From: Burkholderiaceae bacterium
Lineage (GTDB): Bacteria > Pseudomonadota > Gammaproteobacteria > Burkholderiales > Burkholderiaceae_B
Direction of reading: 5' to 3'
Assembly (NCBI GenBank): GCA_030158305.1
Contig: JAOATE010000031.1
Coordinates: forward strand, 30,570 to 94,569
DNA: 64,000 nt
The position numbers were made by a program, and so were the translations under genes. Positions 1,074 to 53,688 of the stretch are shown here, one piece after another. How positions within the stretch are numbered: the first letter of the stretch is position 1; the number at the start of each line of letters is the position of its first letter. The notes below the pieces were generated by a model. It saw only the letters and a list, made by a program, of their open reading frames with translations. It did no database searches and was not told where the DNA came from.

Positions 1074-2447
1074 ATGACACAAGGATTAACCCACGCTCTC
1101 GCCGCCTTCGTGGCGCAACCGACCTTTGGTGGTCAAGAGCAAGCTGCCTATGCCGTTGCGAAAACAGGCTTTATCGATACGATTGCGACCATGATGGCCG
1201 GGCATCGCGAGCCCGTCGTCGACATCGTGCGACAGTTTTTCGCCCAAGCCACGACGCCAGCCGAGGCGCCAGTTCCCTTTTTAGGCACCATGCACCCCAC
1301 GGCACAAGCAGCCTTCATTAATGCAGTGGCTGGTCACGCTTTAGACTATGACGATGTCGCGATCTCAGGCCACCCCAGCACTGTCCTGGTCCCCGCTATT
1401 TTGGCCGAAGGCCACAGACTCAACAGCTCTGGCCTGGACGCTGTGCGCGCCTATATCGTTGGCTATGAAGTCTGGGGGGAACTCGTGAGCCGCGAACCTG
1501 AGCAATATCACCTCAAGGGCTGGCATCCAACAGGCGTCTTTGGTGCGGTGGGTGCCGCCGCGGCTGTGGCCTATCTCAATAAGCTTTCTGTGGATCAGGC
1601 GCGTCAAGCGCTCGCCATCTCAGCCAGTCTTGCTAGTGGCCTGGTCGCGAACTTTGGCACCATGACCAAGCCTTTCCATGCCGGTCGCGCGGCCTCGCAC
1701 GGCATTGATGCAGTCCGTCTGTCCAAACTCGGCCTGACCTCTGCTCCAGATGTGTTTGAGCATCCTGCTGGCTATTTGTTTGCACTATCTTTGTCAGGTC
1801 GTGCAGACCTCAAACGACCCGCTGACACCCTGGGTAAGACCTTGCGGATTTTGGATAGCGGCTTGTCGATCAAGCGCTACCCTGTTTGCTATTCGAGTCA
1901 CCGAACCATTGATGGCGTGCTGGAGATTGTCGAACGTGAAAACCTCAAGGCAGAGGATATCAGCAAGGTTCATGTGACGATGGGTCCTGCGCAAGCCTCA
2001 ATGTTGCGCAACAAACATCCTGTGACAGGTCTCGAGGCTAAATTCAGTGCCCAGTTTGCAGTAGCCTCCGCTGTGGTGGCGCGCCAAGTCGGTTTATCCC
2101 AATTGACGGACGCATTTGCCACACGTCCTGATGTGTCCGAACTCTACGGCAAGGTCAGTGTGACGACGGTTGATACAGCCTGTCCGTTAGAGCCTGCCTT
2201 TGCATTCACAGACCGCGTGGTGATTGAAACAAAGAATGGAAAAAAGTTTGACTCAGGTGAAATTCGTTTTCCGCTGGGCAATGCAAAAAACCCCATCGAT
2301 GCCGCTGGTTTAAAGGCGAAATTTATGGATTGCGTCGCGACAGGCAAAGCCGAAAATCCGGCTATGCATGGCGCGGACGATGGACTCTATGACCGCATAG
2401 CGGGTCTAGAGAATCTCCCTAGCGTGCAGAGCCTATTTGGCAAATAG
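1074..2447 (+). CDS. MmgE/PrpD family protein (epimerase/decarboxylase-like branch)
   Basis: ATG at 1074 after GCAGGAG RBS; the ORF-track start at 882 overlaps the upstream gene. Motifs HALDYDD, GHPS, KGWHPTG, TKPFHAG, KFSAQF. Confidence 0.9.
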   Translation: MTQGLTHALAAFVAQPTFGGQEQAAYAVAKTGFIDTIATMMAGHREPVVDIVRQFFAQATTPAEAPVPFLGTMHPTAQAAFINAVAGHALDYDDVAISGHPSTVLVPAILAEGHRLNSSGLDAVRAYIVGYEVWGELVSREPEQYHLKGWHPTGVFGAVGAAAAVAYLNKLSVDQARQALAISASLASGLVANFGTMTKPFHAGRAASHGIDAVRLSKLGLTSAPDVFEHPAGYLFALSLSGRADLKRPADTLGKTLRILDSGLSIKRYPVCYSSHRTIDGVLEIVERENLKAEDISKVHVTMGPAQASMLRNKHPVTGLEAKFSAQFAVASAVVARQVGLSQLTDAFATRPDVSELYGKVSVTTVDTACPLEPAFAFTDRVVIETKNGKKFDSGEIRFPLGNAKNPIDAAGLKAKFMDCVATGKAENPAMHGADDGLYDRIAGLENLPSVQSLFGK

Positions 2448-2466
2448 TCCTGCAGGCGCCGATGAT
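2433..2466 (+). promoter_or_regulatory. Candidate operator/promoter of the photolyase operon
   Basis: Palindrome CTATTTG-G-CAAATAG (2433-2447) overlaps TTGGCA-N18-GATGAT, a weak sigma70-like pair ending 17 bp before the ATG at 2484. Confidence 0.25.
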
Positions 2467-2483
2467 GTAGTCAACGGAGTCTA

Positions 2484-4034
2484 ATGAGTCAAAGCGTAGT
2501 GTGGTTTAAAAAGGACTTGCGCGTCCATGATCACGCTGCGTTGACTGCCGCCGTCAAACGCGGGCGCGTCTGTTGTCTGTACATCATCGAGCCAAGCCTC
2601 TGGCGCAGCCCGGATGCCTCGACGCAGCACTATGAGTTCACCATCGAAAGTCTGCGCGATCTCTATGTCGCGATTAAAAGACTTGGTGGACAGTTACACG
2701 TTGTAACCGGGGAGGCGCTTGACGTCTTGCAGAGGTTGCACGCACTCATGCCATTTGACGCTCTGTATTCGCATCAGGAAACCGGCAACGCACCGAGCTA
2801 TACGCGTGACATTGCCGTCGGCAACTGGTGCCGCCAACAAGGCATTCGCTGGCATGAGCCGATACAGTTTGGCGTCGTGCGACGACTGCACAATCGAAAC
2901 CTCTGGCAAGCCGCCTGGGAAGAGCACATGCAGCAAGACTGCCTGCCCGCCCCCGCCCGGATCGACGCGCTCCCCTTACCTTGGACTGAGCCACGGCCAC
3001 CGAGTGCGGCGCAACTTTGCATTGACCCACTGAATCCGCCTCGCCGTCAAAAAGGCGGACGTCAGATTGGTCTGGAAATTCTCAATGATTTTCTGGAGGT
3101 CCGTAGCGAACAATATCGTGGCGGAATATCCTCGCCCTTGTCGGCGCCTACGGCATGCTCGCGGATCTCGCCCTACTTTACCTATGGCTGCCTCAGCATG
3201 CGCGAAGTCGTGCATGCGATGGTGGAGGTCATGGACCGCGAGAGCTCCAGGGAGAGCCGCAAATCGAAAGGGTTACGCGCGCTCATGAGCCGTTTGTACT
3301 GGCACTGTCACTTTATTCAAAAGTTGGAGTCAGAACCTGAGCTTGAGTATCAAAACGTTCACCGCGGCTACGATGGTCTGCGGGAAGAAGACTGGAATGA
3401 GGCGAATTTCGCCGCGCTGAGCGAGGGACGCACAGGTTGGCCACTGGTGGACGCCTGCGTGCTGATGCTCAAAGACACGGGTTGGATTAATTTTCGGATG
3501 CGGGCGATGATTGTCTCGACCGCGGCGTACCCGCTCTGGCTGCACTGGCGAGGGGTGGGGCAATGGCTCGCAAGACATTTTCTCGACTACGAGCCTGGTA
3601 TCCACTGGAGCCAGATGCAAATGCAAGCGGGCACCACAGGCATTAATATTCCGCGCATCTACAATCCCATCAAACAGGCACGTGACCACGATCCAAATGG
3701 CGTCTTTGTCCGACGCTGGATTCCAGCGCTCAAAAAAGTCCCAGATACCTGGTTATTTGAACCCTGGCATTTGACACCTGAGATGCAACAACAGTTTGGC
3801 ATCCACGCCGACAATAGACTCCCTGTCCCTGTTGTGGATCTTGAAGCCGCTACACGCGAGTCTAAGCGTCGCCTGTACGATAGACGTAGTGATGCAGACG
3901 TCAAAGCAGGAAAAAAAGCAATTGTTGAAAAGCACGCCTCGCGCAGGCGTTCGAGTCAGCCCGCCAGCCGCAGACGGTTCAACAGTCCCACACAAACGCC
4001 ACCCCCGACACAGCACGCCTTGGATTTCTCATGA
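2484..4034 (+). CDS. Photolyase/cryptochrome family protein, divergent clade
   Basis: N-terminal [16 protein letters not shown]; FAD-domain motifs [51 protein letters not shown]. Confidence 0.92.
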
Positions 4035-4198
4035 CTACCCCCTCCCCCATGCGTGGCCGCAAAAAAGCTGACCTCCCCAGCAAAGTCTGTCAACGTTGCG
4101 CCCGTCCTTTTACTTGGAGAAAAAAATGGGAGCGTGACTGGGAAAACGTGAAATTTTGCTCCGACCGCTGTAGAACGTCTACGGGAGCATCTAAATGA
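4031..4198 (+). CDS. DUF2256-family small Cys4 protein (55 aa; alternative start 4049), absent from the ORF track
   Basis: Hand translation [55 protein letters not shown]. The CxxC-RPFxWRKKW-...-CSxxC pattern is the DUF2256 signature. ATGA overlaps with both neighbours. Confidence 0.88.
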
Positions 4199-5499
4199 GC
4201 ACCTTGATTTATTGGTTTCGAAACGATCTGAGATTGCAGGACTCTCCTGCGCTGAATCAAGCCTGTCGCGCGGCGACACACCTCGTTCCCGTTTTTGTAC
4301 TCGCGCCAGAGGATGCCACGACACGCTGGGGGTTTCCACGTGAGAGTGTGCCGCGCAAACGATATCTCACGCAGACCCTTGTCGAACTGGATGCACAATG
4401 TCGAGCACTCGGTACTCGACTGCTCGTGTTGCAAGGCGATGCGGTGACCACCCTCGCCTCACTGGTTCAATCCACGCAAGCCGACGGCATCATCTGTGAG
4501 CAAATTGCCGCCCCCGAAGAGCAAGCCGAAATCGAGCAGCTTAGAGAGCAAGGCATCAAGGTTCAATACCTGTGGCAATCCACCATGTTGGATTTGGCTA
4601 CGTTGCCTTTTACGCCTCGGCAAATGCCCGATGTGTTTACGCAGTTTAGGCAAAAGCTCGAATCTACAGGACTGCGCGCCCGGGCAGTCGCCGCACGACC
4701 TGAGCGCATGCCCTCTCTGCCCGAGAACCTTGCGGTTGAAAGCGTATGCTTGAAGCAGCGGCTTGAGCATCTGGGTTCGCGTTCAGAAGCAAACAACCGA
4801 TCAAGCGCAGGCACGACTCAAGGTCTGCAACACCTGGACCACTACTTCTCAGACGAACTGCCTCACACCTACAAGCAAACACGCAATCAGCTCTCTGGCA
4901 CAGACTACGCAACCAGCTTTTCAACTTGGTTAGCGACTGGAGCACTCTCGGCGCCAATGATTGTTGAGCGGCTTACGCAATACGAAACTGCCCGAGGTGC
5001 CAACGATGGCACTTATTGGATCTGGTTTGAACTCGCTTGGCGGGATTACTTTCGTTTTTTACATCTGAAATATGGACGTGCCCTTTACTTGCGTGAAGGT
5101 CTGCGCAAGCCTGACCCAGGCAGTGATGCGCCAAGCCTTGCTGAACCCTTGAGTGGCATCGCGCTCAAACTCTTTGAGCAATGGACTCAAGGCAGAACAA
5201 AAAATGCCCTCGTCAATGCGGGCATGAACGAACTCGCCGCGACAGGCAAGATGTCCAATCGCATGCGCCAGATCGTTGCAAGCTATTTGATTTATGACTT
5301 AAGAATCGATTGGCGAGCGGGTGCGGCTTGGTTTGAGTCACAACTCGTGGATTACGACGTTTATAGCAATCAGGGAAACTGGCTCTATATCGCGGGCTTG
5401 GGCACAGATCCGAGAGGCGGCCGACGGATGAATTTAGAAAAACAAGCGCTAGAGCATGACCCTAAGGGGCTCTATCGCAAACAATGGGCACAGACATGA
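4195..5499 (+). CDS. DASH-family cryptochrome (ssDNA CPD photolyase type)
   Basis: [72 protein letters not shown] are typical of Cry-DASH. Confidence 0.9.
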
Positions 5500-7025
5500 C
5501 AACGCTTCGCTTAGTACTGGGTGACCAACTGAACCCCGCACACAGTTGGTTTTCAAAAGTGGACCCAAACGTTGTTTACACCTTGATGGAGATGCGTCAA
5601 GAAACAGACTATGTGGTGCATCATGCCCAAAAGGTACTGGCGATTTTTGCGGGTCTGCGTGACCTCGCAGCACTGCTTGAGTCTCAAGGTCACCGTGTCC
5701 ACTACCTCGCCATTGATGATCCTACAAACACGCAGTCTCTCACGCTCAATCTTGAAAAGCTTATCCAGCAATACACTTGCTCGCGCTTTGAATATCAACA
5801 GCCTGATGAGTGGCGTCTGGATGCGCAACTTGAAACCTTGAGTCAAGGTTTAAAGATCGCGGTGGAGATGTGCGACAGTGAGCACTTTTACACGACGCGT
5901 CACGAGGCAGGAGAGATCTTTAAAGGTCAAAAAAGCTGGCTGATGGAACGCTTTTACCGTCAGATGCGGACAAAACACAAAGTTCTCATGCTCGATGCCA
6001 AGAAACCCGTCGAAGGGCAATGGAATTTTGATCATGAGAATCGCAAGCGCTGGACCGGCACCCCTCCAGAACCCAAAGATCAGCGCACCAAACACGATCA
6101 TTCTGCCTTGTGGAAGGTCATTGAAACATCAGGTGTCCGCACGATGGGAGCGCCACATGCAGCAGAATTTGCCTGGCCCTTGAACCGCAAGGAGGCTCTG
6201 GCGGATCTGGATCGTTTCATCGAACATATTTTGCCAAACTTTGGTGACTTTCAAGATGCGATGAGTACAGGACACTGGCGAATGTTTCACTCGCTACTCT
6301 CCTTTTCGCTCAACACCAAGATGCTCAACCCACAAGAAGTGGTGAGCCGCGCCGAACAAGCCTGGCATGCAGGCAAGGTGTCAATCGCGACGGCTGAGGG
6401 CTTTATCAGGCAAATACTAGGCTGGCGCGAATACATCCGTGGGATGTATTGGCACCATATGCCTGGCTATGAACAGCACAATACGTTTAACCACACCACG
6501 CCCTTGCCAGAGTGGTTTTGGACCGGCCAGACAAAGATGCGCTGTCTCTCAGACTCCATCGGTCAATCTTTAGAGCATGCTTACGGGCACCATATTCAGC
6601 GTCTGATGGTCATTGGCAACTTTTCTCTGCTGGCTGGATTAGATCCCGCTGCGTTGCATCGCTGGTACCTTGGAATCTATATTGATGCGTTTGAGTGGGT
6701 AGAGTTACCCAATGTCATTGGGATGAGTCAGTTTGCCGATGACGGGCTGCTGGCCACCAAACCCTATGTGTCGAGCGCAGCCTATGTCGATCGAATGAGC
6801 GACTATTGCAAAGGCTGTCATTACGATAAAAAGCTACGCGAAGGTGAGCGCGCATGCCCGTATAACGCTTTGTACTGGGACTTTTTTATCCGGCACGAAG
6901 AGAAACTCTCCAAGAATTTCAGGCTCGGAATGGTGTACAGAAATATTGAAAAAATGAGTGATGCCGCCGTCGAGGGCATCAAAGAAAAAGCTCAGGAAAT
7001 CAAAGCATCACTCAATACGTACTGA
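5496..7025 (+). CDS. FeS-BCP bacterial (6-4) photolyase / cryptochrome (PhrB/CryB type)
   Basis: [43 protein letters not shown], and four [4Fe-4S] cysteines ([18 protein letters not shown]). ATG 5496 overlaps the DASH stop (ATGA). Confidence 0.93.
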
Positions 7026-7311
7026 GGCGGTCAATCGCGCAGGCCATCATGATGTCGCGTGTCGACAGGCCATCCGCATCATGCGTGGTCAACACAATAG
7101 AGACCTTGTTGTAGACGTTGGACCACTCGGGGTGATGGTCCAATTTTTCTGCCAGGATCGCGACACGCGTCATAAAGGCAAACGCCTCGCTAAAGTCTTT
7201 GAAATGCCAACTACGGGACAAGCGCCCTCCCGCGGTCGAGTCATATTGCCAATCCGGGCAGGTTGCGCAGGCGGCATCGAGTTCACTGGACTGTAAGCGT
7301 GCAATGCTCAT
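7012..7311 (-). CDS. phhB: Pterin-4a-carbinolamine dehydratase
   Basis: [31 protein letters not shown]. Start moved to ATG 7311. Confidence 0.92.
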
Positions 7312-7324
7312 AATGGTCGACCTC

Positions 7325-8539
7325 TCAAGATGACTGTGTATTGGAAGGACCGGGCTCACGGGGCAACAGCATCACGACGATGGCCGTACACGCAGCAAAA
7401 CCCGCCATGACTAACAACATGACATCAAAACCGAGACTCTTGACCGATGGGCCAAGCGCCCAGACGGCAATTGAACTCAACCCGAGAGAGACGGCCAAGC
7501 GAATACCCGCCACGCGCGAACGCATCCGGTCGTCCACATAGCGCACCACCATCACATCCACGAAGGGTACCGCGCCGAAAATGAACACCATGACGCCCAA
7601 CAAAGCTGCGAACAACCACCAGCCTTGGGCGTGGGAAGCGAGCAAAAACAACGGGATTTGCAGCAACACAATGCCAAGAAAAATGGGGCGAATGGCAAAG
7701 CGGTCAAGCAACTTTCCGACAATCACTTGCATCAGCGACGCCACCACATAGATGACGGCCAACATGATGCCTAAGGTTGCGGGATCCTCCACAATGCCCT
7801 TAAAACGCTCGAGCAACAGCTGACCATTGCCATTGGTCGTAAAGTTAAACAGCACACTCCCGGTCGCAGCGCTCACCGTCATCACTGCCAACACCCGCGC
7901 AATCAAGGCAGGAGGGAATTTGACCTTGGCTGTTGTTTTACGCTTGGCGGGCGCCTCGGTTTCTGCTGGACACACATAAGCAAACCAGACGCCACAGGCA
8001 ATCGACAATACGGCTGGGATTGCAAAGGCAGCGCGCCATCCGAGCCACTTGATCAAAAAGCCACTGACCACGGCGGCAAGCGCCACACCCAAATTACCCG
8101 CCAAACCATTGATCCCAATCGCATAGCCTGGATTGACCGACTTTTGCACCAAAAAGGGAATGCCGACAGGATGATAAATAGAGGCGAAGGCACCCACCAA
8201 CGTCAGCGCTGCGGCGAGTTGCCAAGCGTTTTGGCTCAAAGCGGCAATCAGCGTGGAGGCACCTATACCGACAAAAAACACCACCATCATGCGACGGCGC
8301 CCCCAGAGATCACCCAGGCGACCCGAGGGAATCGAGCCTAAACCAAACAACACGAAAGCTCCCACACCATAGGGCATCAGATCTTCCCAGCTGTCAAAGC
8401 CAAAATCCATTGCAATCACGCCGACTGAGGCCGCAAAGATCAGCAAGAACATATGGTCTAAACCATGCCCGACATTGAGCAGCAATCGAACGGCCAACGA
8501 GTGGTCCTGAGTGTGCAAGGAGGCGTCAGTTGCGCTCAT
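7325..8539 (-). CDS. MFS transporter, substrate unknown
   Basis: About 12 hydrophobic segments; MFS motif [11 protein letters not shown] and second-repeat GKLLDRF; SIYHPVG. Confidence 0.9.
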
Positions 8540-8560
8540 CTTCTTTGGATTCCTGTGTGT

Positions 8561-8986
8561 TTATGCGCGACCAATAATAGATGCCGTCAACATGAGCTCC
8601 TCCAAGAGCGCAAGTGACACCGCACCAGAAACCGAATAGGGATCCAACTCGGGCTGCTCGGAGTACTTGAGTACGATTGAGGTGTTGAGTTTGGAAAGAT
8701 TGACCTTGCCCATTGTCCAGCCACCAAAACGTCTCTCAGTGATTTCTTCGTAGTGAAGCAACACAACGTCTTTGTGTCGTGTGTCACGAATGATGTGGCC
8801 ATACAACTCATTGACTTGCTTGCGCCCACCTTCGATCGCCTGAAGGTAAATTCCGCCGCCATAACAAAGAATGCCGGTAATTCCATTGGCGATATTGTGC
8901 TGACGCGAGGAATCTAAAATCGAATCCGTCTCCTCGTTCGCGCTTGGGTCTAGTGCACGACTGACATATAACAAACGTACCAACAT
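8561..8986 (-). CDS. Stand-alone BLUF blue-light sensor
   Basis: LLYVSRA (Tyr), NIANGITGIL, YLQAIEG (Gln), DTRH, RFGGWTM (Trp/Met). No output domain. Confidence 0.93.
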   Translation of the reverse strand: MLVRLLYVSRALDPSANEETDSILDSSRQHNIANGITGILCYGGGIYLQAIEGGRKQVNELYGHIIRDTRHKDVVLLHYEEITERRFGGWTMGKVNLSKLNTSIVLKYSEQPELDPYSVSGAVSLALLEELMLTASIIGRA

Positions 8987-8988
8987 GG

Positions 8989-9696
8989 TTATACCTCTCG
9001 AGGAATCAAGGACAGGAACTCACGACGCAAATTGGGGTCTTTTAGAAAGGCTCCCCGCATGACTGAGTTGATCATACGACTATCCATGTCCTTGACACCG
9101 CGCCAGGACATACAAAAGTGTGTCGCGCTCATGACGACAGCCAAACCATCGGGTTGGGTTTTTTCCTGAATCAAGTCTGCGAGCTGCACCACAGCTTCTT
9201 CTTGGATCTGCGGGCGGCTCATGATCCATTCCGCGAGGCGGACGTATTTGGAGAGACCGATCACGTTGGTATGCTCATTGGGCATGATCCCAATCCAAAC
9301 CTTACCGATCACGGGACAAAAGTGATGACTGCACGCGCTGCGGACGGTCATCGGTCCAACAATCATCAATTCGCTCAGATGCTCGACGTTAGGAAACTCT
9401 GTAATCGGGGGCTGGGGACGATAACGACCGCCAAACACCTCTTGAAGATACATTTTGGCAACGCGTCGCGCGGTGTCATTGGTGTTGTGATCGGAAACGG
9501 TGTCAATCACCAAGCTTTCCAACACGCCTTTCATTTTGCCCTCCACCTCATCCAACAGCAGAGCAAGCTCGCCGGGTTCGATAAAGTCGGAGATGTTGTC
9601 ATTGGCATGAAAACGCTTGCGTGCTGATTTCAGGCGATTGCGGATGGATACCGAAATGGGTACGCCTTTGTCTGGGTCTTGATCAGTAGGATTCAT
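8989..9696 (-). CDS. folE: GTP cyclohydrolase I
   Basis: TARRVAKMY, RSACSHHFCP, GLSKYVR, RPQIQE, HFCMSWRGV (Zn ligands C, H, C). Start moved to ATG 9696. Confidence 0.95.
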   Translation of the reverse strand: MNPTDQDPDKGVPISVSIRNRLKSARKRFHANDNISDFIEPGELALLLDEVEGKMKGVLESLVIDTVSDHNTNDTARRVAKMYLQEVFGGRYRPQPPITEFPNVEHLSELMIVGPMTVRSACSHHFCPVIGKVWIGIMPNEHTNVIGLSKYVRLAEWIMSRPQIQEEAVVQLADLIQEKTQPDGLAVVMSATHFCMSWRGVKDMDSRMINSVMRGAFLKDPNLRREFLSLIPREV

Positions 9697-9786
9697 AAGG
9701 TTGAGTTTAATCGTGGTGTGAGTATCTTGTGTTGGGGAAAAGAAGATCAAACTTAAGCATTAACGGAAGCACGACCTGGCTAAGCA

Positions 9787-10167
9787 CTACTTGATCCGAC
9801 GTTGTATCGCTGGACGAATCCGAAGAAACCCAACATAACATTTTTCTAAAAACCATATACCAGGAGGATGCGCAAACAACCGCCCGAACCAGCGCCAATA
9901 TTTCAGGCTCAACCAGAGCTCGACAAAAGCCGCAGCCCCACTTTTGAGGGTGCCATCGGCGCCTCGCACATGAAAGCGCGCCATCGCTTGCTGGCAACTC
10001 AAATCACCAGCGACTTGTCCGTCTGTCGCGCGACTGACATCCTGCCAACTAATCTGGTCCGCGCCTGCACTGTTTTTATAAAAACCAATTTCTCGCCGGC
10101 AAAGCGGACACGAACCATCGAAATACACAGTGATCTGATTATTTGCTTTCACAGAGGCTTTGTCCAT
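9787..10167 (-). CDS. DUF393 / DCC-family thiol-disulfide oxidoreductase
   Basis: VYFDGSCPLC (DxxCxxC), GAAAFVELW. Start moved to ATG 10167. Confidence 0.88.
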   Translation of the reverse strand: MDKASVKANNQITVYFDGSCPLCRREIGFYKNSAGADQISWQDVSRATDGQVAGDLSCQQAMARFHVRGADGTLKSGAAAFVELWLSLKYWRWFGRLFAHPPGIWFLEKCYVGFLRIRPAIQRRIK

Positions 10168-10180
10168 AAAGACCACACAC

Positions 10181-10669
10181 CTACAACCACTTCTGCATGA
10201 AGAGGGCCTGCCCCGTTTCTGGGCTGAGGGAATATTGCTCAAAGCCAAAACGTTGATAAGAGCGCTGCGCTTGGGTATTGCCGCTCAGCACCTCAAGCGT
10301 CACCTTGCAGCACCCTGAAGCGCGCGCATACCCCTCCATCGCTGTCAAAAGCGCCTGACCGACACCTTGACCGCGGTGGGCAGGGTCCACGGCAATGTCG
10401 TGCACATTGAGCAAAGGGCGTGCTTTAAAGGTCGAATATCCGGGCAAGGCATTTAACAACCCGACTGGCTGGCCGTCCTTGAACGCCAGCCAACTGATCG
10501 CTCCGGAAAACTTAGCGAGGTCGTCACACAAACGCAGTCGTGTGTCCGCAGGCAGGGGCTCACCGCCTCCCATTGGGTCTCTGGCATACATATCAAGCAT
10601 GGAAAGGAGAGCCTGGCGGTCACTTGGATCAAGATAATCCACGACTTTGACAACAATGCTGCACTGCAT
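10181..10669 (-). CDS. GNAT family N-acetyltransferase
   Basis: LNVHDIAV, HRGQGVGQALL (acetyl-CoA motif A), YQRFGF. ATG 10669 follows a GGAGAGG RBS; the long ORF-track extension is antisense to the CoA-transferase. Confidence 0.9.
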   Translation of the reverse strand: MQCSIVVKVVDYLDPSDRQALLSMLDMYARDPMGGGEPLPADTRLRLCDDLAKFSGAISWLAFKDGQPVGLLNALPGYSTFKARPLLNVHDIAVDPAHRGQGVGQALLTAMEGYARASGCCKVTLEVLSGNTQAQRSYQRFGFEQYSLSPETGQALFMQKWL

Positions 10670-10766
10670 AAAAACCTCTCCTAGATGCTGACGCGGACCG
10701 ACGAGCCTGCCACCGCTTGTCCGATGGTATAACAACTCGTTTGCAGACCCAAATCGAAGGTACATG

Positions 10767-11972
10767 ATGTCCGACTCTCTGCCCCTTGAAGGCATTCGCG
10801 TTGTTGAATTTACACATATGGTCATGGGTCCCACCTGTGGGATGATTCTTGGCGATCTCGGCGCCGAGGTGATCAAAGTCGAACCGCTCGCAGGTGACAA
10901 CACCCGCAAGCTGCTGGGCTCAGGCTCTGGTTTTTTCCCAATGTTTAACCGCAACAAGAAAAGCATTGCAGTCGATGTCAAACATCCTGCGGGAAAAGAA
11001 ATTGTCCTTAAGCTGCTCGGTTCAGCCGACGTTTTTAGTGAGAACTTCAAAACCGGCACCATGGACAAGCTTGGTTTTGGTTACGAGGCCTTATCCAAGC
11101 TAAACCCCGCCCTCATCTATGTGTCCCACAAAGGCTTTTTGCCAGGACCATATGAACACCGCACCGCACTCGATGAGGTCGTGCAGATGATGGGCGGTCT
11201 GGCCTATATGACGGGTCCGGTTGGACAACCCTTGCGCGCGGGTGCGAGCGTGAACGACATCATGGGTGGCATGTTTGGCGCGATCGGTGTGTTGGCCTCC
11301 CTACAAAAACGGCATCGCACAGGCAAGGGCCAAGAGGTCGCAAGTGCTTTGTTTGAAAACAATGTTTTTCTAGTCGCGCAACACATGATGCAATTTGCCG
11401 TGACAGGTGCTCCGGCCAATCCAATGCCTAACAGGCTAAGCGCCTGGGCTGTATACGATGTCTTTACAGTCAAGGATGGTGAGCAGATATTCTTGTCAGC
11501 CGTCAGCGACACCCAATGGACGATCTTGTGCAAAGAGTTCGGCTTTGATGACCTCAAGTCTGACGATCGACTGGTGACGAACAATGACCGCGTCAAGGCG
11601 CGCAGCTGGCTCATTCCGATTTTGCGTGAAAGGTTTGGCGTGTTGAGTGCAAAAGAACTGAGTAGCCGTTTTGAACAATGCGGCTTGCCTTATGCGCCCA
11701 TTACACGCCCACACGACTTGTTCGACGATCCCCACCTGCTCGCCACGGGCGGCCTGGCACCTGTCACGATCGCTGCCGACAACACGGGCGCCGGACGAGA
11801 AATCGAAACCCGCGTCGCCCTGTTACCAATCGCTCTTGAAGGTGAACGCCTGCAAGTGCGCAAAGCTCCACCAACAATCGGTGCCGATACGATCGAACTT
11901 TTACAAAGCATCGGCTATACCCAAGAAGAAATATCAGCCCTCAAAGACAATGGAGTCGTGACATGGAATTAA
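10767..11972 (+). CDS. CaiB/BaiF class III CoA-transferase
   Basis: GIRVVEFTHMVMGP, LGAEVIKVEP, NRNKKSIAVD, ADVFSENF, ALDEVVQ. Confidence 0.92.
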   Translation: MSDSLPLEGIRVVEFTHMVMGPTCGMILGDLGAEVIKVEPLAGDNTRKLLGSGSGFFPMFNRNKKSIAVDVKHPAGKEIVLKLLGSADVFSENFKTGTMDKLGFGYEALSKLNPALIYVSHKGFLPGPYEHRTALDEVVQMMGGLAYMTGPVGQPLRAGASVNDIMGGMFGAIGVLASLQKRHRTGKGQEVASALFENNVFLVAQHMMQFAVTGAPANPMPNRLSAWAVYDVFTVKDGEQIFLSAVSDTQWTILCKEFGFDDLKSDDRLVTNNDRVKARSWLIPILRERFGVLSAKELSSRFEQCGLPYAPITRPHDLFDDPHLLATGGLAPVTIAADNTGAGREIETRVALLPIALEGERLQVRKAPPTIGADTIELLQSIGYTQEEISALKDNGVVTWN

Positions 11973-30223: not shown

Positions 30224-30338
30224 TTGAACCATCCGTGACTTAGGCTCTGCCAAACCCCCCTTTTTGCTGCGATAATGACACATGCACGGCGTTGTGCAGC
30301 GCAACAAACCATTACTTCTGCAGCCTAAACTGTTTCTT

Positions 30339-32495
30339 ATGAGCACATGTGACATCTCGACTCAGCGCATTATCCATTTGCGCGGGCCGAATATCTGGAC
30401 CTACCGCCCAGTGATCGAGGCTTGGATACAGTTTGACGGCTTTCAGGCCTTACCTGCAGCAACGATGCGTGCCGCCTATGAGCGCTTGTGCCAAGCCCTT
30501 CCCTCACTCACCCAGCCTGGACCCGGCATAGAAGCGTCCAAAGACACGCCTTCATTACTCGCCTCAGGAATGTGGTCTCCCCATCTGCTCGAACACCTCA
30601 CACTCGTCTTGCAGCAACGCGCAGGCATGTCAGGAGGTTTTGGCCAAACGCGCCCTACCTCCAAACCCGGCCTCTTCAAAGTCGTCGTACGCGCGTGGCA
30701 CGAAATCGTGACGCAGCAAGCGCTCAAATTCGCGCGAATCCTGATACTCGATTCTCTCGGTGACCAACCGCTTGACGTCCAACACATGATCGACGCGTTA
30801 CATGAGCTTCGTCTGCTTCATTGCTTGGGTCCCAGCACCGCTTGCATTGTCGATGCTGCAGATGACCGTGATATCCCTGCTATCAGGTTAAGTGCGGGCA
30901 ATCTTTTACAGCTGGGCTACGGTGTCAATCAGCGCCGCATCTGGACCGCTGAAACAGACAACACGGGTGCCATCGCTGAGACCATCTCTCGCGATAAAGA
31001 TCTGACGAAAAGCTTGCTGCAGTCCTGTGGTGTGCCTGTACCGACCGGCCGAGAGGTCTCCAGCGCCGAAGATGCGTGGGACGCCGCACAAGACTTAGGA
31101 CTGCCTGTGGTGGTCAAACCCAGTGATGGCAATCATGGGCGAGGCGTTTTTACAAACTTGTCCACTCACGAGGAAATTAGGCGTGCCTATTGCGTCGCGA
31201 TTGAGGAAGGCTCAGGCGTTCTGGTTGAGCAATTTATTCGCGGCAATGAGCACCGACTCCTCGTGGTGGGTGGCAAACTCGTCGCAGCCGCCAAAGGACA
31301 ACACGCCTGCGTCACAGGTGATGGCAAACAAAGCATCCGAACACTGATTGATACTCAACTCAATGCGGACCAACGCCGTGGACACGAAGAAGATCAGCCC
31401 CTTAATTTTGTCAAACTAGACGCCGCTGCCACACTTGAAATTGAGCGACAAGGCTTTGCACCTGATGACGTGCCTCTAGCAGGACAAGAGATTACGATTC
31501 AACGCAACGGCAACGTTGCGTTTGACTGTACCGAAGAAGTTCATCCAGAGGTGGCAGCCGTTGCCTGCACTGCAGCCCGGATTGTGGGACTCGACATCGC
31601 GGGCATCGACTTGGTCGCTGTTGATATTTCCAAACCTCTCGGTGCGCAACAAGGCGCCATCGTTGAAGTCAATGCCGGTCCGGGCTTACTGATGCACCTC
31701 AAGCCCGCGCAGGGCAAAGCACGTCAAGTCGGCCGTGACATCGTGGGCTACACCTTCCCGCCCGGTGATATGGCAAGGGTCCCTGTCGTTGGCATTACTG
31801 GCACACGCGGTAAAACACTGACAAGCAAACTGCTTTTTAAGCTTCTTTCCCTGTACGGCTGGAAAACTGGACTGGCCTGCAGTGATGGCTTGTTCGTCGA
31901 CCAGCGCCGATTGCACTCTGGCAACTGCGCCGATCATGCAAACGGTCGACGCATACTGTTAAACCGTGAAGTCGAAGCGGTCATTATCGAAAACGGCTGC
32001 AAACAAATTTTGACTGAAGGCCTTGCTTACGAGCGTTGCGAGGTTGGCGTCATAACCAACGTAGATTGGATCGAAGATCTTGCCGCATACGAGATCCGCG
32101 ACGAACTTGATCTGATTAACATTTACCGCACGCAGATGGACGTGGTGCTTCCACATGGCATGGCCATCCTGAATGCCGATGACCAGCGCGTCATGGCCTT
32201 GTCTCAGTTTTGTGATGGTCGAGTCACACTCTTTGGCAGTCAGGCCAATCTGCCCGCCCTTGTCAACCATATTGCCAATGGTCAGCGCGCAGTTTTTATC
32301 GATCACGGCCAGCTGATTTTGGCCGAGGGCTCGGTTCGCCGAAATCTCTGTACGCTGGCCTCTATTCCGGTCACGCAACAAGGTACTCACCGTGAGCACA
32401 TCAGCAGTGTGCTCGCCGCTGCTGCTGCAGCCTGGTCGCTCGGATTAAGTCCCGAGCTCATCGAAGCAGGTTTGATTGCTTTTGAACTGAACTAA
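30339..32495 (+). CDS. cphA: Cyanophycin synthetase paralog CphA' (C-terminally truncated)
   Basis: LRGPNIW, LGPSTACIV, ATP-grasp motifs VVKPSDGNHGRG and VEVNAGPG, GTRGKT. Ends before the DYGHN domain. Confidence 0.9.
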   Translation: MSTCDISTQRIIHLRGPNIWTYRPVIEAWIQFDGFQALPAATMRAAYERLCQALPSLTQPGPGIEASKDTPSLLASGMWSPHLLEHLTLVLQQRAGMSGGFGQTRPTSKPGLFKVVVRAWHEIVTQQALKFARILILDSLGDQPLDVQHMIDALHELRLLHCLGPSTACIVDAADDRDIPAIRLSAGNLLQLGYGVNQRRIWTAETDNTGAIAETISRDKDLTKSLLQSCGVPVPTGREVSSAEDAWDAAQDLGLPVVVKPSDGNHGRGVFTNLSTHEEIRRAYCVAIEEGSGVLVEQFIRGNEHRLLVVGGKLVAAAKGQHACVTGDGKQSIRTLIDTQLNADQRRGHEEDQPLNFVKLDAAATLEIERQGFAPDDVPLAGQEITIQRNGNVAFDCTEEVHPEVAAVACTAARIVGLDIAGIDLVAVDISKPLGAQQGAIVEVNAGPGLLMHLKPAQGKARQVGRDIVGYTFPPGDMARVPVVGITGTRGKTLTSKLLFKLLSLYGWKTGLACSDGLFVDQRRLHSGNCADHANGRRILLNREVEAVIIENGCKQILTEGLAYERCEVGVITNVDWIEDLAAYEIRDELDLINIYRTQMDVVLPHGMAILNADDQRVMALSQFCDGRVTLFGSQANLPALVNHIANGQRAVFIDHGQLILAEGSVRRNLCTLASIPVTQQGTHREHISSVLAAAAAAWSLGLSPELIEAGLIAFELN

Positions 32496-32545: not shown

Positions 32546-35116
32546 ATGGAAGTTTCTAGAATTCGCGCGCTACGTGGTCCTAATTTATGGAGTCGCCACA
32601 CTGCCATCGAAGCAGTTGTGACGTGTTCAGGCGACGAAGCTGACCTGGATCAGATGCCCGGTTTCGTCACACGACTGCGAGCACGATTTCCAGAAATCAA
32701 GCCTCTTCGTCCTTTTGGACACAAAGATCCGATTACTTTGGCGCACGCGATTGAAGCGATTGCACTGGGTTTGCAAGCCGCAGCGGGCTGCCCCGTTGCC
32801 TTTGGTCAAACAACGTCGACGCCCGAGCAAAATGTCTTTCAAATTGTCTTTCAATATACCGAAGAGCCTGTCGGTCGACGTGCCCTCGAACTCGCAGAGA
32901 GTTTGTGCCAGGCCGCGTTAGACGACACTGCCTTTGATATCAAACAAGCGCTCTCTGAGTTGCGCGAACTCGACGAAGACGTTCGTCTCGGTCCAAGTAC
33001 TGGATCCATTGTGGATGCCGCGGTTGCACGAGGCGTGCCTTATCGTCGTCTGACTGAGGGTAGCCTAGTCCAGTTTGGTTGGGGTAGCAAACAAAAACGC
33101 ATCCAAGCCGCTGAGACCAGCAGCACCAGCGCAATCGCAGAAGCCATTGCCCAGGACAAAGACCTGACCAAAATGTTGCTGCAAGCCGCTGGCGTGCCAG
33201 TTCCCCAGGGACATGTCGCGACCAATTCAGATGATGCATGGGAAATCGCCAACCACATCGGTTTGCCGGTTGTCGTCAAGCCTCGCGATGGCAATCAGGG
33301 TAAAGGCGTTGCGGTCAACATCGAAACACGCGAACAACTCAACAAAGCCTTTGACGTTGCCTGCACAATCAGTCGCGATGTCATCATTGAGCAATACATT
33401 CCCGGTCACGACTTTAGAATGCTGGTGATCGGCAACCAACTCATCGCCGCCGCCAGACGTGATCCACCCAGCGTCATCGGTGATGGTCAACATACGATTG
33501 CTCAGCTCGTTGAGACGGTTAACTTAGACCCCTTGCGCGGCGATGGCCACGCCACAGCACTGACCAAAATTCGCCTGGATGATATTGCTCTGGCGACGCT
33601 GGCCAATCAAGGCTTAAACGCCCAATCCGTTCCAGAGAATGGTCAGCGTATTTTGTTGCGCAACAATGCCAACCTGAGCACAGGTGGCAGCGCCACGGAT
33701 GTCACGGATGAGGTGCATCCTGAACTAGCCGCCCGCATGGTGACTGCTGCGCAAATGGTCGGACTCGATATTGCGGGCGTCGACCTCGTAGCAGAAACCG
33801 TCGTCAAACCCATGGAAGAGCAGCGCGCCGGCATTGTCGAGATCAATGCCGCCCCCGGCCTGCGCATGCACCTCAGCCCCTCGTTTGGCAAAGCGCGTCC
33901 CGTGGGCGAAGCGATCGTATCGACCATGTTCGCCGATGGAGATAACGCCCGCATACCTGTGGTCGCCGTCGCCGGCACCAATGGTAAAACGACCACCGTC
34001 AGACTGACAGCACATTTACTCGGTGCGAGCGGCAAACGCGTTGGCATGACCAACTCTGACGGTGTCTATATCGAGCATCGCTGCATCGACACTGGAGACT
34101 GTAGCGGACCGCGTAGTGCACGCAATGTACTCATGCACCCTGATGTCGATGCCGCAGTATTTGAAACGGCACGTGGCGGGATTTTGCGAGAGGGATTGGC
34201 ATTTGACAAATGCGACGTGGCCATCGTGACCAATATTGGCATGGGCGATCACCTCGGTATGAATTTCATCACGACGGTCGATACACTTGCATTAGTCAAA
34301 CGCGTCATCGTTCAAAACGTGGCGCCTCATGGCACTGCCGTGCTCAATGCCATGGATCCCATGGTCATCAAAATGGCAGAGGTTTGTCCGGGTTCCGTGA
34401 CGCTTTTCTCCAGTGACCGTCAACAACCCGCTCTCAACACGCATCGCGCCCAAGGCAAGCGGGTGGTGTATCTCGATGGAGACAATATTGTCGCGGCTGA
34501 AGGCAGTACTGAGCACCGACTCGCGCTAAAGGCGATTCCGCTGACGCGCAACGGTAGCATCACCTTCCAAAATGAAAATGCGATGGCCTCAATCGCTGCA
34601 GCATGGGCACTGGGCATCGACTGGCAAACGATTGCCACTGGTCTCTCAACCTTTGTGAATGACGCTCAAACGGCGCCAGGGCGCTTTAACGTGTTTGATT
34701 ATCGGGGCGCCACGGTCATTGCCGACTACGGACATAATCCAGATGCGATTCAGGCACTGATTCAAGCAATTGAGACGATGCCAGCCAAGCGCAGAATGGT
34801 CGTGATTAGTGGTGCAGGCGATCGTCGCGATGAGGATATCGTGCGTCAGACTGAAATTCTTGGCGAAGCGTTTGATCAGGCAATTTTGTATCAGGATCAA
34901 TGCCAGCGCGGACGAGAGGATGGTGAGGTGCTTGCGCTTTTGCAGCAGGGGCTGGTCAATGTCTCACGCACAAAAGACATCGTCGAGATCAGAGGCGAGT
35001 TTTTAGCGATTGATACTGCACTCGCCAAATTAGAACCTGGTGATCTCTGTTTGATTTTGATCGACCAGGTGCAAGAGGCTTTGGATCATATTGCCCTGCG
35101 CGTCAAGCAGGGCTGA
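32546..35116 (+). CDS. cphA: Cyanophycin synthetase (full length)
   Basis: LRGPNLW, LGPSTGSIV, VVKPRDGNQGKG, GTNGKTT, ETARGG, PGRFN, DYGHNP. Confidence 0.95.
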   Translation: MEVSRIRALRGPNLWSRHTAIEAVVTCSGDEADLDQMPGFVTRLRARFPEIKPLRPFGHKDPITLAHAIEAIALGLQAAAGCPVAFGQTTSTPEQNVFQIVFQYTEEPVGRRALELAESLCQAALDDTAFDIKQALSELRELDEDVRLGPSTGSIVDAAVARGVPYRRLTEGSLVQFGWGSKQKRIQAAETSSTSAIAEAIAQDKDLTKMLLQAAGVPVPQGHVATNSDDAWEIANHIGLPVVVKPRDGNQGKGVAVNIETREQLNKAFDVACTISRDVIIEQYIPGHDFRMLVIGNQLIAAARRDPPSVIGDGQHTIAQLVETVNLDPLRGDGHATALTKIRLDDIALATLANQGLNAQSVPENGQRILLRNNANLSTGGSATDVTDEVHPELAARMVTAAQMVGLDIAGVDLVAETVVKPMEEQRAGIVEINAAPGLRMHLSPSFGKARPVGEAIVSTMFADGDNARIPVVAVAGTNGKTTTVRLTAHLLGASGKRVGMTNSDGVYIEHRCIDTGDCSGPRSARNVLMHPDVDAAVFETARGGILREGLAFDKCDVAIVTNIGMGDHLGMNFITTVDTLALVKRVIVQNVAPHGTAVLNAMDPMVIKMAEVCPGSVTLFSSDRQQPALNTHRAQGKRVVYLDGDNIVAAEGSTEHRLALKAIPLTRNGSITFQNENAMASIAAAWALGIDWQTIATGLSTFVNDAQTAPGRFNVFDYRGATVIADYGHNPDAIQALIQAIETMPAKRRMVVISGAGDRRDEDIVRQTEILGEAFDQAILYQDQCQRGREDGEVLALLQQGLVNVSRTKDIVEIRGEFLAIDTALAKLEPGDLCLILIDQVQEALDHIALRVKQG

Positions 35117-50823: not shown

Positions 50824-53688
50824 TTATTTAGTCAGCATGAAGGTCTTGAACTTGCCAAACGCTTGCTCGACCAGCGCTTTTTGCTGCTCAAGGTGTTTGG
50901 CCAGATAGCCAACAGCTGGCGAGGCGGAGGCCGCACGGCCTGCATAACCAAGCTTTTGACCGCTGGACATGTTCTGATACAAGTGATGCTGAACATAGAA
51001 CCAAGAGCCCTGATTCTGTGGCTCATCCTGAACCCAGACCACTTCAGTTGCTTTGGGGTATTTTCGCAATTCGGTTTCAAAGGTCTTGTGCGCAAAGGGA
51101 TACAACTGTTCGGCGCGAATGATCGCAACCGTGTTGTCTTTACGCTCGCGACGACCATTGACCAAATCGTAATAAACCTTGCCTGAACACACCAGCACAC
51201 GCTTCACCGAAGCGGGGTTGATAGACTCATCCACCTCTGCAATGATTGGACGGAAGCGGCCCGTTGCCAGATCAGACAAAGGTGAACCCGCATCTTTGTT
51301 ACGCAGCAAGGACTTGGGCGTCAAAATGACTAAAGGCTTACGGAACTGGCGAATCATCTGACGACGCAACAGATGGAAAATCTGTGCAGCGGTCGTAGGC
51401 TGAACCACCTGGATATTGTTATCTGCGCAAAGCTGCAAGAAACGCTCAATCCGCGCGGATGAGTGCTCTGGGCCCTGACCTTCGTAACCGTGAGGCAACA
51501 TCATAGTCAAACCGGACTGACGACCCCATTTGGCCTCGCCGGAGACGATGAACTGGTCAATCACAACTTGCGCACCGTTGACGAAGTCACCGAACTGGGC
51601 TTCCCAGATGGTGAGGGTCTTGGGATCTGCGCAAGAGTAGCCGTATTCAAAACCTAAAACGGCTTCTTCGGACAGCACAGAGTCGATCACCGTAAAGGGC
51701 GCCTGACCTTCTACGACATGCTGGAGAGGGATATAAGTGCCATCGTCCCAACGCTCACGGTTTTGATCATGCAAGACGGCATGACGGTGAGTAAACGTGC
51801 CACGGCCAGAGTCTTGACCCGTGATGCGAACGGCATAACCTGAAGCAACCAGTGTTGCAAAAGCCAGATGCTCGCCCATGCCCCAATCGAGATTCATCTC
51901 ACCACGCGCCATCGTGCGACGATCGTTCAGCAACTTGGTCACGAGCGAGTGAGGTGCAAAGCCCTCAGGCACCACGGTGAGTTTTTCACCGATTCGCTTG
52001 AGCTCAGAGATCGGCACAGCCGTATCGGCCTGATCCGTCCACTTGGCATTGAGGTAAGACGTCCAGTCAATCGCATACTTGCTCTTGTAGTCCGTCAAGA
52101 CGGGCTCGATCGTACGGCGACCATCTTCCATGTATTGACGATAGTCTTTGACGAGCTGGTCTCCGTCACCGTCTTTCAAAACACCCTGCGCCGTCAACTT
52201 GTCTGCATAGAGCTTGCGTGTGCCAGGATGCGCGCCAATCGTCTTGTACATCAAAGGCTGCGTCAAGGATGGTGTGTCTTGTTCGTTGTGACCGAGTTTG
52301 CGGAAGCAAACAATATCCACCACGACATCTTTACCAAACTGCATGCGGAAATCCAGCGCCATGCGGGTTGCAAAGACAACTGCCTCAGGGTCGTCGCCGT
52401 TCACATGAAACACGGGGGCTTCGATCATTTTGGAGACATCGGTACAGTAGATCGTCGAACGTGTGTCGCGTGGATCAGAGGTCGTGAAACCGATCTGGTT
52501 GTTGATGACCAGATGCAAAGTGCCGCCTGTGCCGTAACCGCGCGTTTCAGCGAGGTTGAGTGTTTCCATGACAACGCCCTGGCCTGCAAAAGCAGCATCG
52601 CCGTGAACGAGTACAGGCAAGACCTGTTTGTAACCGTCAGCACCGCGACGCTCTTGGCGTGCGCGCACGCTGCCTTCGACGACAGGATTGACGATCTCAA
52701 GGTGCGAGGGATTAAAGGCCAATGACAAATGCACTGGACCACCACGTGTGGACAAATCGCTCGAGAATCCGTTGTGATATTTCACATCACCATCGGTCAA
52801 GCCTTCGGCATGATGACCTTCGAACTCTGCGAACAAATCACCAGGCATCTTGCCCATGATATTGACAAGCATATTGAGACGGCCACGGTGAGCCATACCC
52901 ACCACGATTTCTTGGACGCCTGACTCACCCGCGTGGTTGACCACCTCGTCCATTGACGCGATGAAACTATCACCACCTTCGAGGGAGAAACGCTTTTGAC
53001 CTACGTATTTTGTGTGCAGAAAGCGCTCAAGACCTTCGGCCTCGGTTAACTGCTGCAAAATGTGGCGCTTGCGATCGGCCGCAAAAGTGGGGGCGCTGAG
53101 CGTGGACTCGAGGCGCTCCTGCACCCAGCGCTTGACGGCTGGATCTGACGCGTGCATGAACTCGACGCCGATCGAACGGCAGTACGTATCACGCAAGGCT
53201 TTCAGAATCTCGCGCAACGTCATCGTTGTCGCTTTGGTGAAATAGGTATTGGTCGCTGAAAAAACCTGATCCAGATCAGCTTCGGTCAGACCATAAAACG
53301 CAGGGTCGAGCTCAGGAATGGGGGGGCGATCCTGTCGCTTGAGTGGATCGAGCTCCGCCCAACGCGAACCGAGAGTGCGATAAGCAGCAATCAATGACTG
53401 GACGTGCACTTGTTTCATCGCGACCGCAAGATCGGGCTCCTGGCCACGCTGGACAAAAGCATTGGCTTTAGCGCGTTGCGCAAAGGATTCGATGATGGGT
53501 GCGTGGGCCTGGTCGCGCGTGGCTTCTTGACCATCTGTTGCGGGCATATGCTGCAACTGGTCAAAGTAATTACGCCAATTATCTGGGACCGAACCTGGAT
53601 TATCCAGATAGGCTTCGTAGAGTTCTTCTACGTAGGGCGCATTGCCCCCAAAGAGATAAGAGTTCTGTAAAGAATCAAGAAATGACAT
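50824..53688 (-). CDS. sucA: 2-oxoglutarate dehydrogenase E1
   Basis: KRFSLEGG, GMAHRGRLN, HGDAAFAGQG, WEAQFGDF, PHGYEGQGPEHSS. Confidence 0.97.
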   Translation of the reverse strand: MSFLDSLQNSYLFGGNAPYVEELYEAYLDNPGSVPDNWRNYFDQLQHMPATDGQEATRDQAHAPIIESFAQRAKANAFVQRGQEPDLAVAMKQVHVQSLIAAYRTLGSRWAELDPLKRQDRPPIPELDPAFYGLTEADLDQVFSATNTYFTKATTMTLREILKALRDTYCRSIGVEFMHASDPAVKRWVQERLESTLSAPTFAADRKRHILQQLTEAEGLERFLHTKYVGQKRFSLEGGDSFIASMDEVVNHAGESGVQEIVVGMAHRGRLNMLVNIMGKMPGDLFAEFEGHHAEGLTDGDVKYHNGFSSDLSTRGGPVHLSLAFNPSHLEIVNPVVEGSVRARQERRGADGYKQVLPVLVHGDAAFAGQGVVMETLNLAETRGYGTGGTLHLVINNQIGFTTSDPRDTRSTIYCTDVSKMIEAPVFHVNGDDPEAVVFATRMALDFRMQFGKDVVVDIVCFRKLGHNEQDTPSLTQPLMYKTIGAHPGTRKLYADKLTAQGVLKDGDGDQLVKDYRQYMEDGRRTIEPVLTDYKSKYAIDWTSYLNAKWTDQADTAVPISELKRIGEKLTVVPEGFAPHSLVTKLLNDRRTMARGEMNLDWGMGEHLAFATLVASGYAVRITGQDSGRGTFTHRHAVLHDQNRERWDDGTYIPLQHVVEGQAPFTVIDSVLSEEAVLGFEYGYSCADPKTLTIWEAQFGDFVNGAQVVIDQFIVSGEAKWGRQSGLTMMLPHGYEGQGPEHSSARIERFLQLCADNNIQVVQPTTAAQIFHLLRRQMIRQFRKPLVILTPKSLLRNKDAGSPLSDLATGRFRPIIAEVDESINPASVKRVLVCSGKVYYDLVNGRRERKDNTVAIIRAEQLYPFAHKTFETELRKYPKATEVVWVQDEPQNQGSWFYVQHHLYQNMSSGQKLGYAGRAASASPAVGYLAKHLEQQKALVEQAFGKFKTFMLTK

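Follow-up and report, generated by a model that had tools for sequence, protein, structure and literature searches.

The folE-BLUF pair and its conservation

The 64-kb stretch of DNA analysed here (the window; positions are 1-based within it) carries on its minus strand a run of genes in which folE, encoding GTP cyclohydrolase I, is followed by the gene for a short blue-light photoreceptor of the BLUF type. A reading made from the sequence alone had seen in this run a light-controlled pterin module of five genes, encoding a DCC1-like thiol-disulfide oxidoreductase, FolE, BLUF, an MFS transporter and a pterin-4a-carbinolamine dehydratase (PCD), all on one strand and in that order. When the open reading frames (ORFs) of the window were scanned with Pfam and NCBIfam profiles, all five assignments were confirmed by Pfam, and a GNAT acetyltransferase gene that was missing from the earlier list was found upstream of them. 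Read from the sequence, the gaps from the GNAT gene through those for DCC1-like protein, FolE, BLUF and MFS to that for PCD are 13, 87, 2, 21 and 13 bp; the last three are as previously given, while the gap 5' of folE, put at 90 bp before, is 87 bp.

What is conserved of this run is the folE-BLUF pair, and not the run as a whole. A genome scan with the window FolE, taking one genome per species, returned at least 586 Burkholderiales relatives, the best 80 of which (FolE 79-97% identity) were taken with 10-kb flanks, and the window proteins were mapped onto them. Of these loci, 79 reach beyond folE, and in every one of them BLUF is the next gene downstream on the same strand, mostly 5-16 nt away, the two being 2 bp apart in the window; the remaining locus of the 80 stops 29 nt after folE. 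The pair is present in Alcaligenaceae (Zwartia, Orrella and Sheuella), in Comamonadaceae (Limnohabitans, Rhodoferax, Polaromonas, Hydrogenophaga, Variovorax, Hylemonella and Macromonas) and also in Tepidimonas. To this extent the link between pterin synthesis and light that the sequence-only reading had drawn is supported. Nor is the layout seen in the window a matter of chance, since it recurs in three other loci (L004, L005 and L007) and its core in all 79.

Beyond these relatives, three Rubrivivax-type contigs (L001, L088 and L089) keep the pair with FolE ~66% and BLUF 56% identical to the window proteins, and two metagenomic contigs (L090 and L091) keep it at BLUF identities of 53% and 46%, the cut ORF upstream of BLUF in L091 being a FolE C-terminus with the signature of this clade (see below). 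At 42% BLUF identity (L092) there is no FolE within 200 nt upstream, so that, judged by sequence, the folE-linked BLUF clade ends near 45% identity. Across families FolE is 79-97% and BLUF 71-96% identical, with MFS and GNAT down to 56-70%. No gene besides folE and BLUF is constant, their neighbours being MFS in some lineages, a gene that we call X in Comamonadaceae and a 1-Cys peroxiredoxin gene in L001; MFS, PCD and the photolyases are later, lineage-specific additions to the pair. Full-text searches of the literature found no paper in which BLUF is paired with folE or GTP cyclohydrolase, or with the biosynthesis of folate or pterins, and this module, conserved in Burkholderiales, has apparently not been described before.

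Properties of FolE and BLUF

The window FolE is ~35-40% identical to solved FolE structures and scores 128-144 bits with the NCBIfam models for this enzyme, below all four of their cut-offs, which lie at 162-202 bits (TIGR00063, NF006824, NF006825 and NF006826). We aligned 84 FolE sequences of the clade to Yersinia FolE (4DU6), using E. coli numbering. Throughout the 84 sequences the zinc ligands Cys110, His113 and Cys181, the catalytic His112 and His179, the guanine-binding Glu152 and the phosphate-binding Arg65, Lys68, Lys136, Arg139 and Arg185 are invariant, and Ser135 and Gln151 are also kept. Equally invariant are three changes, Glu111 to Ser, Val115 to Cys and Arg153 to Glu. The canonical C-E-H-H is replaced by C-S-H-H-F/L-C-P (residues 123-129 of the window FolE) in 84/84 sequences as well as in L001, L088 and L090, which places a second invariant Cys five residues after the zinc-ligand Cys. 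Since all zinc, catalytic and substrate residues are kept while the scores fall below the cut-offs, the clade FolE is a distinct, hyper-conserved subfamily, and it looks catalytically competent. Genes of thiol-redox proteins recur beside the pair, the DCC1-like gene in the window and that of the 1-Cys peroxiredoxin in L001 (L001:11280-11939), and together with the second Cys they hint at redox sensitivity of this FolE.

The match of the BLUF protein to TePixD (1X0P; 37% identity, E 1.7e-22) spans the full length, and Tyr7, Asn31, Gln49, Trp90 and Met92 are invariant among 80 sequences. Its AlphaFold (AF2) model (pLDDT 79.6) has C-terminal helices at residues 102-108 and 121-133, and it superposes on the TePixD and SyPixD structures (1X0P, 8I98 and 2HFN) with TM scores of 0.85-0.88 over 135-139 columns, both C-terminal helices included. 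The C-terminal motif EELMxTASIIGRA is nearly invariant in the clade. By sequence and by model, then, BLUF is a full-length PixD-type photoreceptor whose photoactive residues are intact.

Neighbouring genes in the window and in other lineages

Table 1. Gene run of interest and facing photolyase/cryptochrome genes in the window
Feature	Position	Strand	Remarks
Photolyase/cryptochrome family, class unclear	2484-4034	+	PF00875 and PF03441
Cry-DASH cryptochrome/photolyase	4195-5499	+	TIGR02765, 425.5 bits (cut-off 317)
DPRP/FeS-BCP-type photolyase-related protein	5484-7025	+	PF04244, 241 bits
Pterin-4a-carbinolamine dehydratase (PCD)	7012-7311	-	99 aa; PF01329, 107 bits
MFS transporter	7325-8539	-	404 aa; PF07690 (MFS_1)
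BLUF, PixD-type short blue-light photoreceptor	8561-8986	-	141 aa; PF04940, 102.6 bits
folE, GTP cyclohydrolase I	8989-9699	-	236 aa; PF01227, 143.9 bits (cut-off 27)
Spacer 5' of folE	9700-9786	-	87 bp; possible internal promoter
DCC1-like/DUF393 thiol-disulfide oxidoreductase	9787-10167	-	126 aa; PF04134, 74 bits
GNAT acetyltransferase	10181-10669	-	162 aa; PF00583; probable first gene of the run

In the window the GNAT gene and a CoA-transferase gene at 10764 point away from each other, and at the far end of the run three photolyase/cryptochrome genes converge on it tail-to-tail, the 3' ends of the DPRP-type gene and of PCD overlapping by 14 bp (Table 1). The region is matched in freshwater metagenome runs and its host is a freshwater Alcaligenaceae-like betaproteobacterium, the window MFS being 87% identical to that of a Zwartia sp. 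The Pfam scan of all large ORFs of the 64 kb found no aromatic amino-acid hydroxylase (Biopterin_H, PF00351), in agreement with the sequence-only reading, and likewise no second folE, no folE2, no further pterin enzyme and no LitR/MerR-family regulator.

The complete layout, namely PrpD and the three photolyase-family genes, then PCD, MFS, BLUF, FolE, DCC and GNAT, then CoA-transferase and SDR, is confined to L004, L005 and L007 (Zwartia panacis), with parts of it in L006, L008, L009, L012, L013 and L015. Photolyases lie beside the pair only in some of the Alcaligenaceae-type loci (L004, L005, L007-L009, L012, L013, L015 and L087). One of these, the independent contig L087, has GNAT-folE-BLUF-MFS-PCD together with a DPRP-type gene and two more photolyase-family genes recognised by their Pfam domains only, and its MFS is only 65% identical to that of the window. 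The GNAT gene is kept upstream of folE in the Alcaligenaceae-type loci L002-L018 and L087, DCC occurs only in L004-L009 and L015 (Zwartia-type), and 13 Alcaligenaceae-type loci have PCD after MFS. In Sheuella (L002) and in L084 the order is folE-BLUF-MFS, with neither PCD nor photolyases, and in L018 PCD, DCC and photolyases are missing.

The MFS gene adjoins folE-BLUF in L001-L018, L084 and L087-L089, lying convergent to it in L001, L088 and L089, while in contigs L085 and L086 the same MFS clade occurs without folE-BLUF. The neighbourhoods of this MFS clade, which the sequence-only reading had proposed to survey, show it adjacent to the pair in Alcaligenaceae- and Rubrivivax-type lineages only. 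As to what the protein carries, its only Pfam match at E<=0.01 is PF07690, with none to the folate-biopterin transporter family PF03092; all its NCBIfam matches are far below cut-off, and in the PDB it matches only YajR, weakly (E 0.0015). An identity as a pterin transporter thus finds no support in Pfam, NCBIfam or PDB, and since the clade also occurs apart from folE-BLUF and has no folate/biopterin transporter match, the pterin export or import that had been suggested for it is unsupported.

The PCD, on the other hand, looks by its sequence like a canonical and active enzyme. It passes the NCBIfam equivalog NF002018 (125.9 bits against a cut-off of 108), has PDB matches to DCoH/PCD and carries E-x3-H-H-P-x5-Y-x9-H-x8-D; the PCD motif of Naponelli et al. 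2008 is reportedly [EDKH]-x3-H-[HN]-[PCS]-x5,6-[YWF]-x9-[HW]-x8,15-D. In passing NF002018 and having the catalytic motif it resembles the PhhB/PCD of phhAB and COG2154, but unlike in phhAB its gene is coupled to an MFS gene, is found so only in Alcaligenaceae-type lineages and has no hydroxylase gene with it in the window.

The Comamonadaceae present a different picture. None of the 62 Comamonadaceae-type loci has MFS, PCD, DCC or a photolyase within 10 kb of the pair, which sits instead in a housekeeping block, aspS - nudB - endonuclease/phosphatase - clsB - folE - BLUF - X. Here nudB lies ~2.5 kb upstream of the pair on the same strand in 35 loci, its product passing the NCBIfam equivalog (218 bits against 103), and clsB lies ~1.3 kb upstream in 56. 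In 55 of the loci, e.g. at L022:11129-11968, BLUF is followed on its own strand by gene X, which has a conserved product of ~280 aa with the N-terminus M..LGCDFSS.PS.RKPIV; the gap is 8-100 nt, or ~0.9-1 kb where one gene has apparently come in between. The X protein matches nothing in Pfam, NCBIfam or the PDB, and its gene is missing from the window as well as from the Alcaligenaceae and Rubrivivax-type loci. X could be the partner of BLUF or a third component. With photolyases confined to an Alcaligenaceae-type subset, and the pair of the Comamonadaceae lying among housekeeping genes, the view of the whole run as one conserved light-controlled module does not hold.

Expression and upstream signals

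A Shine-Dalgarno-like GAGAGG for BLUF lies inside the 3' end of folE, and BLUF is apparently translationally coupled to folE. Metatranscriptome contigs cross the folE/BLUF junction (X25, 8586-9026; X26, 8874-9047, with one mismatch), which indicates that the two genes are co-transcribed, bearing in mind that contigs from RNA libraries can contain DNA.

The signals in front of folE are less clear. The 87-bp spacer upstream of it has no Shine-Dalgarno sequence for folE, and a scan of positions 2300-11000 for sigma-70 promoters and terminators gave matches no commoner than in shuffled sequences, with none in the DCC-folE spacer. In Zwartia-type loci this spacer holds 2-5 direct copies of (A)GTGCTTA(A) (window 9752-9786; also L004, L005 and L007), but since the rest of the window shows no enrichment of this motif, we rejected it as a shared operator. 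A riboswitch or other RNA element upstream of folE was also considered and rejected, since an Rfam scan of the whole window at gathering thresholds found only the SucA RNA motif (RF01070 at 53694-53776, minus strand, 40 bits, equal to the gathering score), directly upstream of the gene for 2-oxoglutarate dehydrogenase E1 (50824-53688).

As an observation on the Comamonadaceae (L021-L083, e.g. L029, L034 and L053), an extended -10-like sequence, CTG(G/T)TAnnAT, is found ~40 nt upstream of the annotated folE ATG, and 5-8 nt further on comes ATG(T/C)T(A/G)ATGAA, conserved and in frame. FolE of these species may therefore truly start with MLMK..., and its transcript may be leaderless or nearly so.

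Possible light control of the first pterin step

The constant adjacency of BLUF and folE suggests that light directly controls pterin production. By analogy with the systems discussed below, we tentatively take the functional unit to be a folE-BLUF module that would couple blue-light sensing to the first committed step of pterin and folate synthesis. Its pathway context in Comamonadaceae is provided by nudB, which represents the next step of the folate pathway. A precedent for folE in light-induced regulons, which the sequence-only reading had invoked, does exist: in Pseudomonas a short LOV protein (PmSB-LOV) and LitR (PplR/PmlR2) are encoded next to a folM-folE-folX operon that is light-induced 2-3-fold together with photolyase and cryB genes (PMC9758184). 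There, as here, a short flavin photoreceptor gene lies next to an operon containing folE. However, in the present case the sensor is BLUF rather than LOV and belongs to the folE operon itself, and the window has no LitR/MerR, whereas the control in Pseudomonas is transcriptional and goes through such a regulator.

Two known systems bear on how light might act on the enzyme. PixD is a decamer of two pentameric rings that binds its partner in the dark and dissociates in blue light (PMC5899715). The clade BLUF is like PixD (Slr1694/Tll0078) of the cyanobacterial PixD-PixE system in its length (~140 aa), its two C-terminal helices and the same photoactive Tyr, Gln, Met and Trp. It differs in that no PixE (PatA-type) response regulator lies beside the pair, be it in the run of the window or in related loci, the invariant neighbour being FolE, and in that the hosts are heterotrophic Burkholderiales. 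In animals, GTP cyclohydrolase I (GCH1) is a D5 decamer whose five-fold axes are capped by two pentamers of GFRP (PMC7750480), and GCH1/GFRP structures (1IS7, 1IS8 and 1WPL) are among the PDB matches of the window FolE. The likeness would consist in a small pentameric cap that tunes a D5 GTP cyclohydrolase I; unlike GFRP, to which it is unrelated, BLUF would take light as its input and not tetrahydrobiopterin (BH4) or phenylalanine.

Given the pentameric rings of PixD and a D5 FolE decamer that is capped by pentamers, we propose that BLUF rings dock on FolE, a reading to which we give just short of an even chance. The PixD-type BLUF would assemble into five-fold rings as PixD does, and the FolE decamer, with its D5 symmetry, would receive these on its five-fold faces as GCH1 does the GFRP pentamer. 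Blue light would then rearrange or dissociate the BLUF oligomer (compare the change of the PixD decamer to dimers) and so alter FolE activity, in one direction or the other. A plausible purpose would be to make more H2-neopterin triphosphate in the light, replacing photolabile reduced folates and pterins and loading antennae of the methenyltetrahydrofolate (MTHF) type. In the window's lineage this core has gained MFS, PCD, the DCC1-like protein and GNAT and, with the three tail-to-tail photolyase/cryptochrome genes, forms a local light-response island. A bacterial, light-gated counterpart of GFRP-GCH1, with a BLUF ring in direct contact with the GTP cyclohydrolase I decamer and light thereby governing the first pterin step, is possible, if somewhat more doubtful than probable.

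Several points weigh against such binding. The BLUF-FolE complex is a hypothetical one, drawn by analogy. BLUF has no likeness to GFRP in sequence or fold, with only BLUF proteins among the matches listed, so that the analogy comes down to symmetry. All characterised short BLUF proteins, to our knowledge, act on regulators or signalling enzymes and none on a biosynthetic enzyme. No genuine FolE-BLUF fusion was found among 1.84 billion protein representatives, in which the other long matches are multi-BLUF proteins; the single candidate, P0389 (268 aa), was discarded as an assembly or sequencing artefact with frameshift-like stretches. The tight adjacency of folE and BLUF is equally expected from simple co-expression. 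Metatranscriptome depth is greater over folE-BLUF than over the neighbouring genes, but these two genes are also the more conserved ones and the depth was taken from contigs, both of which confound the contrast, and DNA carry-over is possible; only the contigs that span the junction were therefore used.

One must therefore consider co-expression as an explanation in its own right. According to this alternative, the target of BLUF signalling is encoded elsewhere and could be a transcription factor, a cyclic di-GMP (c-di-GMP) enzyme or a motility protein, or else it is X in Comamonadaceae; BLUF and folE would share an operon simply because cells need both in the light, or because of an old and stable synteny. 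The known short BLUF systems PixD-PixE, BlsA, PapB and BluF-BluR all act via regulators (PMC5899715, PMC9758184), neither a fusion nor evidence of interaction was found for FolE and BLUF, and the conserved X after BLUF in the 55 Comamonadaceae loci could be the true partner. Yet no regulator is conserved beside the pair in any lineage, and X is absent from Alcaligenaceae, from Rubrivivax-type loci and from the window, whereas folE is the sole invariant neighbour down to 46% BLUF identity, and the FolE that is so paired is itself a special, hyper-conserved subfamily. We consider this explanation, the strongest of the alternatives, unlikely, though not lightly to be set aside.

A second alternative extends the module to the whole run, at least in the window's lineage: FolE would produce pterin under BLUF control, PCD would recycle oxidised tetrahydropterin, DCC would provide thiol reduction and MFS would transport pterins, all serving the Cry-DASH protein and photolyases. 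In all the photolyase-bearing loci listed above, GNAT-(DCC)-folE-BLUF-MFS-PCD indeed stands tail-to-tail with DPRP, Cry-DASH and photolyase genes; moreover PCD has its catalytic motif, passes its equivalog and follows MFS in its 13 loci, and MFS adjoins the pair also in the Rubrivivax-type lineage, a distant one, where it faces the other way. However, the MFS shows no kinship with folate/biopterin transporters or with others that have been characterised, and its clade also occurs without folE-BLUF (L085 and L086), while PCD, DCC and photolyases are missing from L002, L084, L018 and all Comamonadaceae loci, most carriers of the pair lacking the accessory genes. In addition, FeS-BCP proteins carry a lumazine antenna rather than a folate one. 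Such a full module is improbable.

It is very improbable that this FolE has been neofunctionalised, to make another product or to act as a redox- or light-responsive sensor while a separate FolE or FolE2 does the housekeeping: it does fall below every NCBIfam FolE cut-off, has the clade-invariant Glu111 to Ser, extra Cys and Arg153 to Glu by the zinc site and recurs with thiol-redox neighbours (DCC in the window, 1-Cys peroxiredoxin in L001), but it keeps every known zinc, GTP-binding and catalytic residue of E. coli FolE, sits with nudB in the Comamonadaceae housekeeping block and has no second folE or folE2 within the 64-kb window.

Returning to the proposed docking of BLUF on FolE, the effectors of short BLUF proteins are mostly unknown, and comparative genomics here gives a concrete candidate in GTP cyclohydrolase I, whose five-fold symmetry would fit. 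If the proposal is true, BLUF would be the first known case of a photoreceptor that binds an enzyme of cofactor biosynthesis and so controls it, and a light-gated FolE would occur in hundreds of species of Burkholderiales, among them such dominant freshwater plankton as Limnohabitans, Rhodoferax and Polaromonas. The supply of folates and pterins in abundant heterotrophs of sunlit waters would then be under post-translational light control, linking photoreception with the photodamage of reduced folates and with the loading of photolyase antennae. For optogenetics, it would provide a small regulator by which a central GTP-consuming enzyme could be switched with light.

Other observations

Six of the contigs used here (L005, L006, L008, L009, L014 and L052), from freshwater metagenome-assembled genomes, are titled 'Bordetella parapertussis' in public records. 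These titles are a taxonomic mislabel, the content being a Zwartia/Orrella-like light island.

In relatives, genes have been inserted variably at two places, in the interval from GNAT to folE and in that which separates PCD from the photolyases (L010:8217-9833, L015:6398-9444, L013:12873-14592 and L087:7611-8379). The genes inserted there include those for gamma-glutamyltranspeptidase, beta-lactamase-family, 3-hydroxyisobutyrate-dehydrogenase-like, 2OG-Fe dioxygenase, glyoxalase and DUF2237 proteins.

The photolyase-family protein of unclear class (2484-4034) is below every NCBIfam class cut-off, has its best PDB match in 6kii (E 2e-39) and ends in a basic C-terminal tail of ~50 aa; its gene starts 36 bp after a same-strand MmgE/PrpD-family gene. 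By Pfam, the large ORFs in the rest of the window are of a housekeeping nature, including functions of the tricarboxylic acid (TCA) cycle, polyhydroxybutyrate (PHB), cyanophycin and Sox. Among them are tandem cyanophycin-synthetase-like genes on the plus strand (30282-32495 and 32546-35116), with ATP-grasp and Mur-ligase domains.

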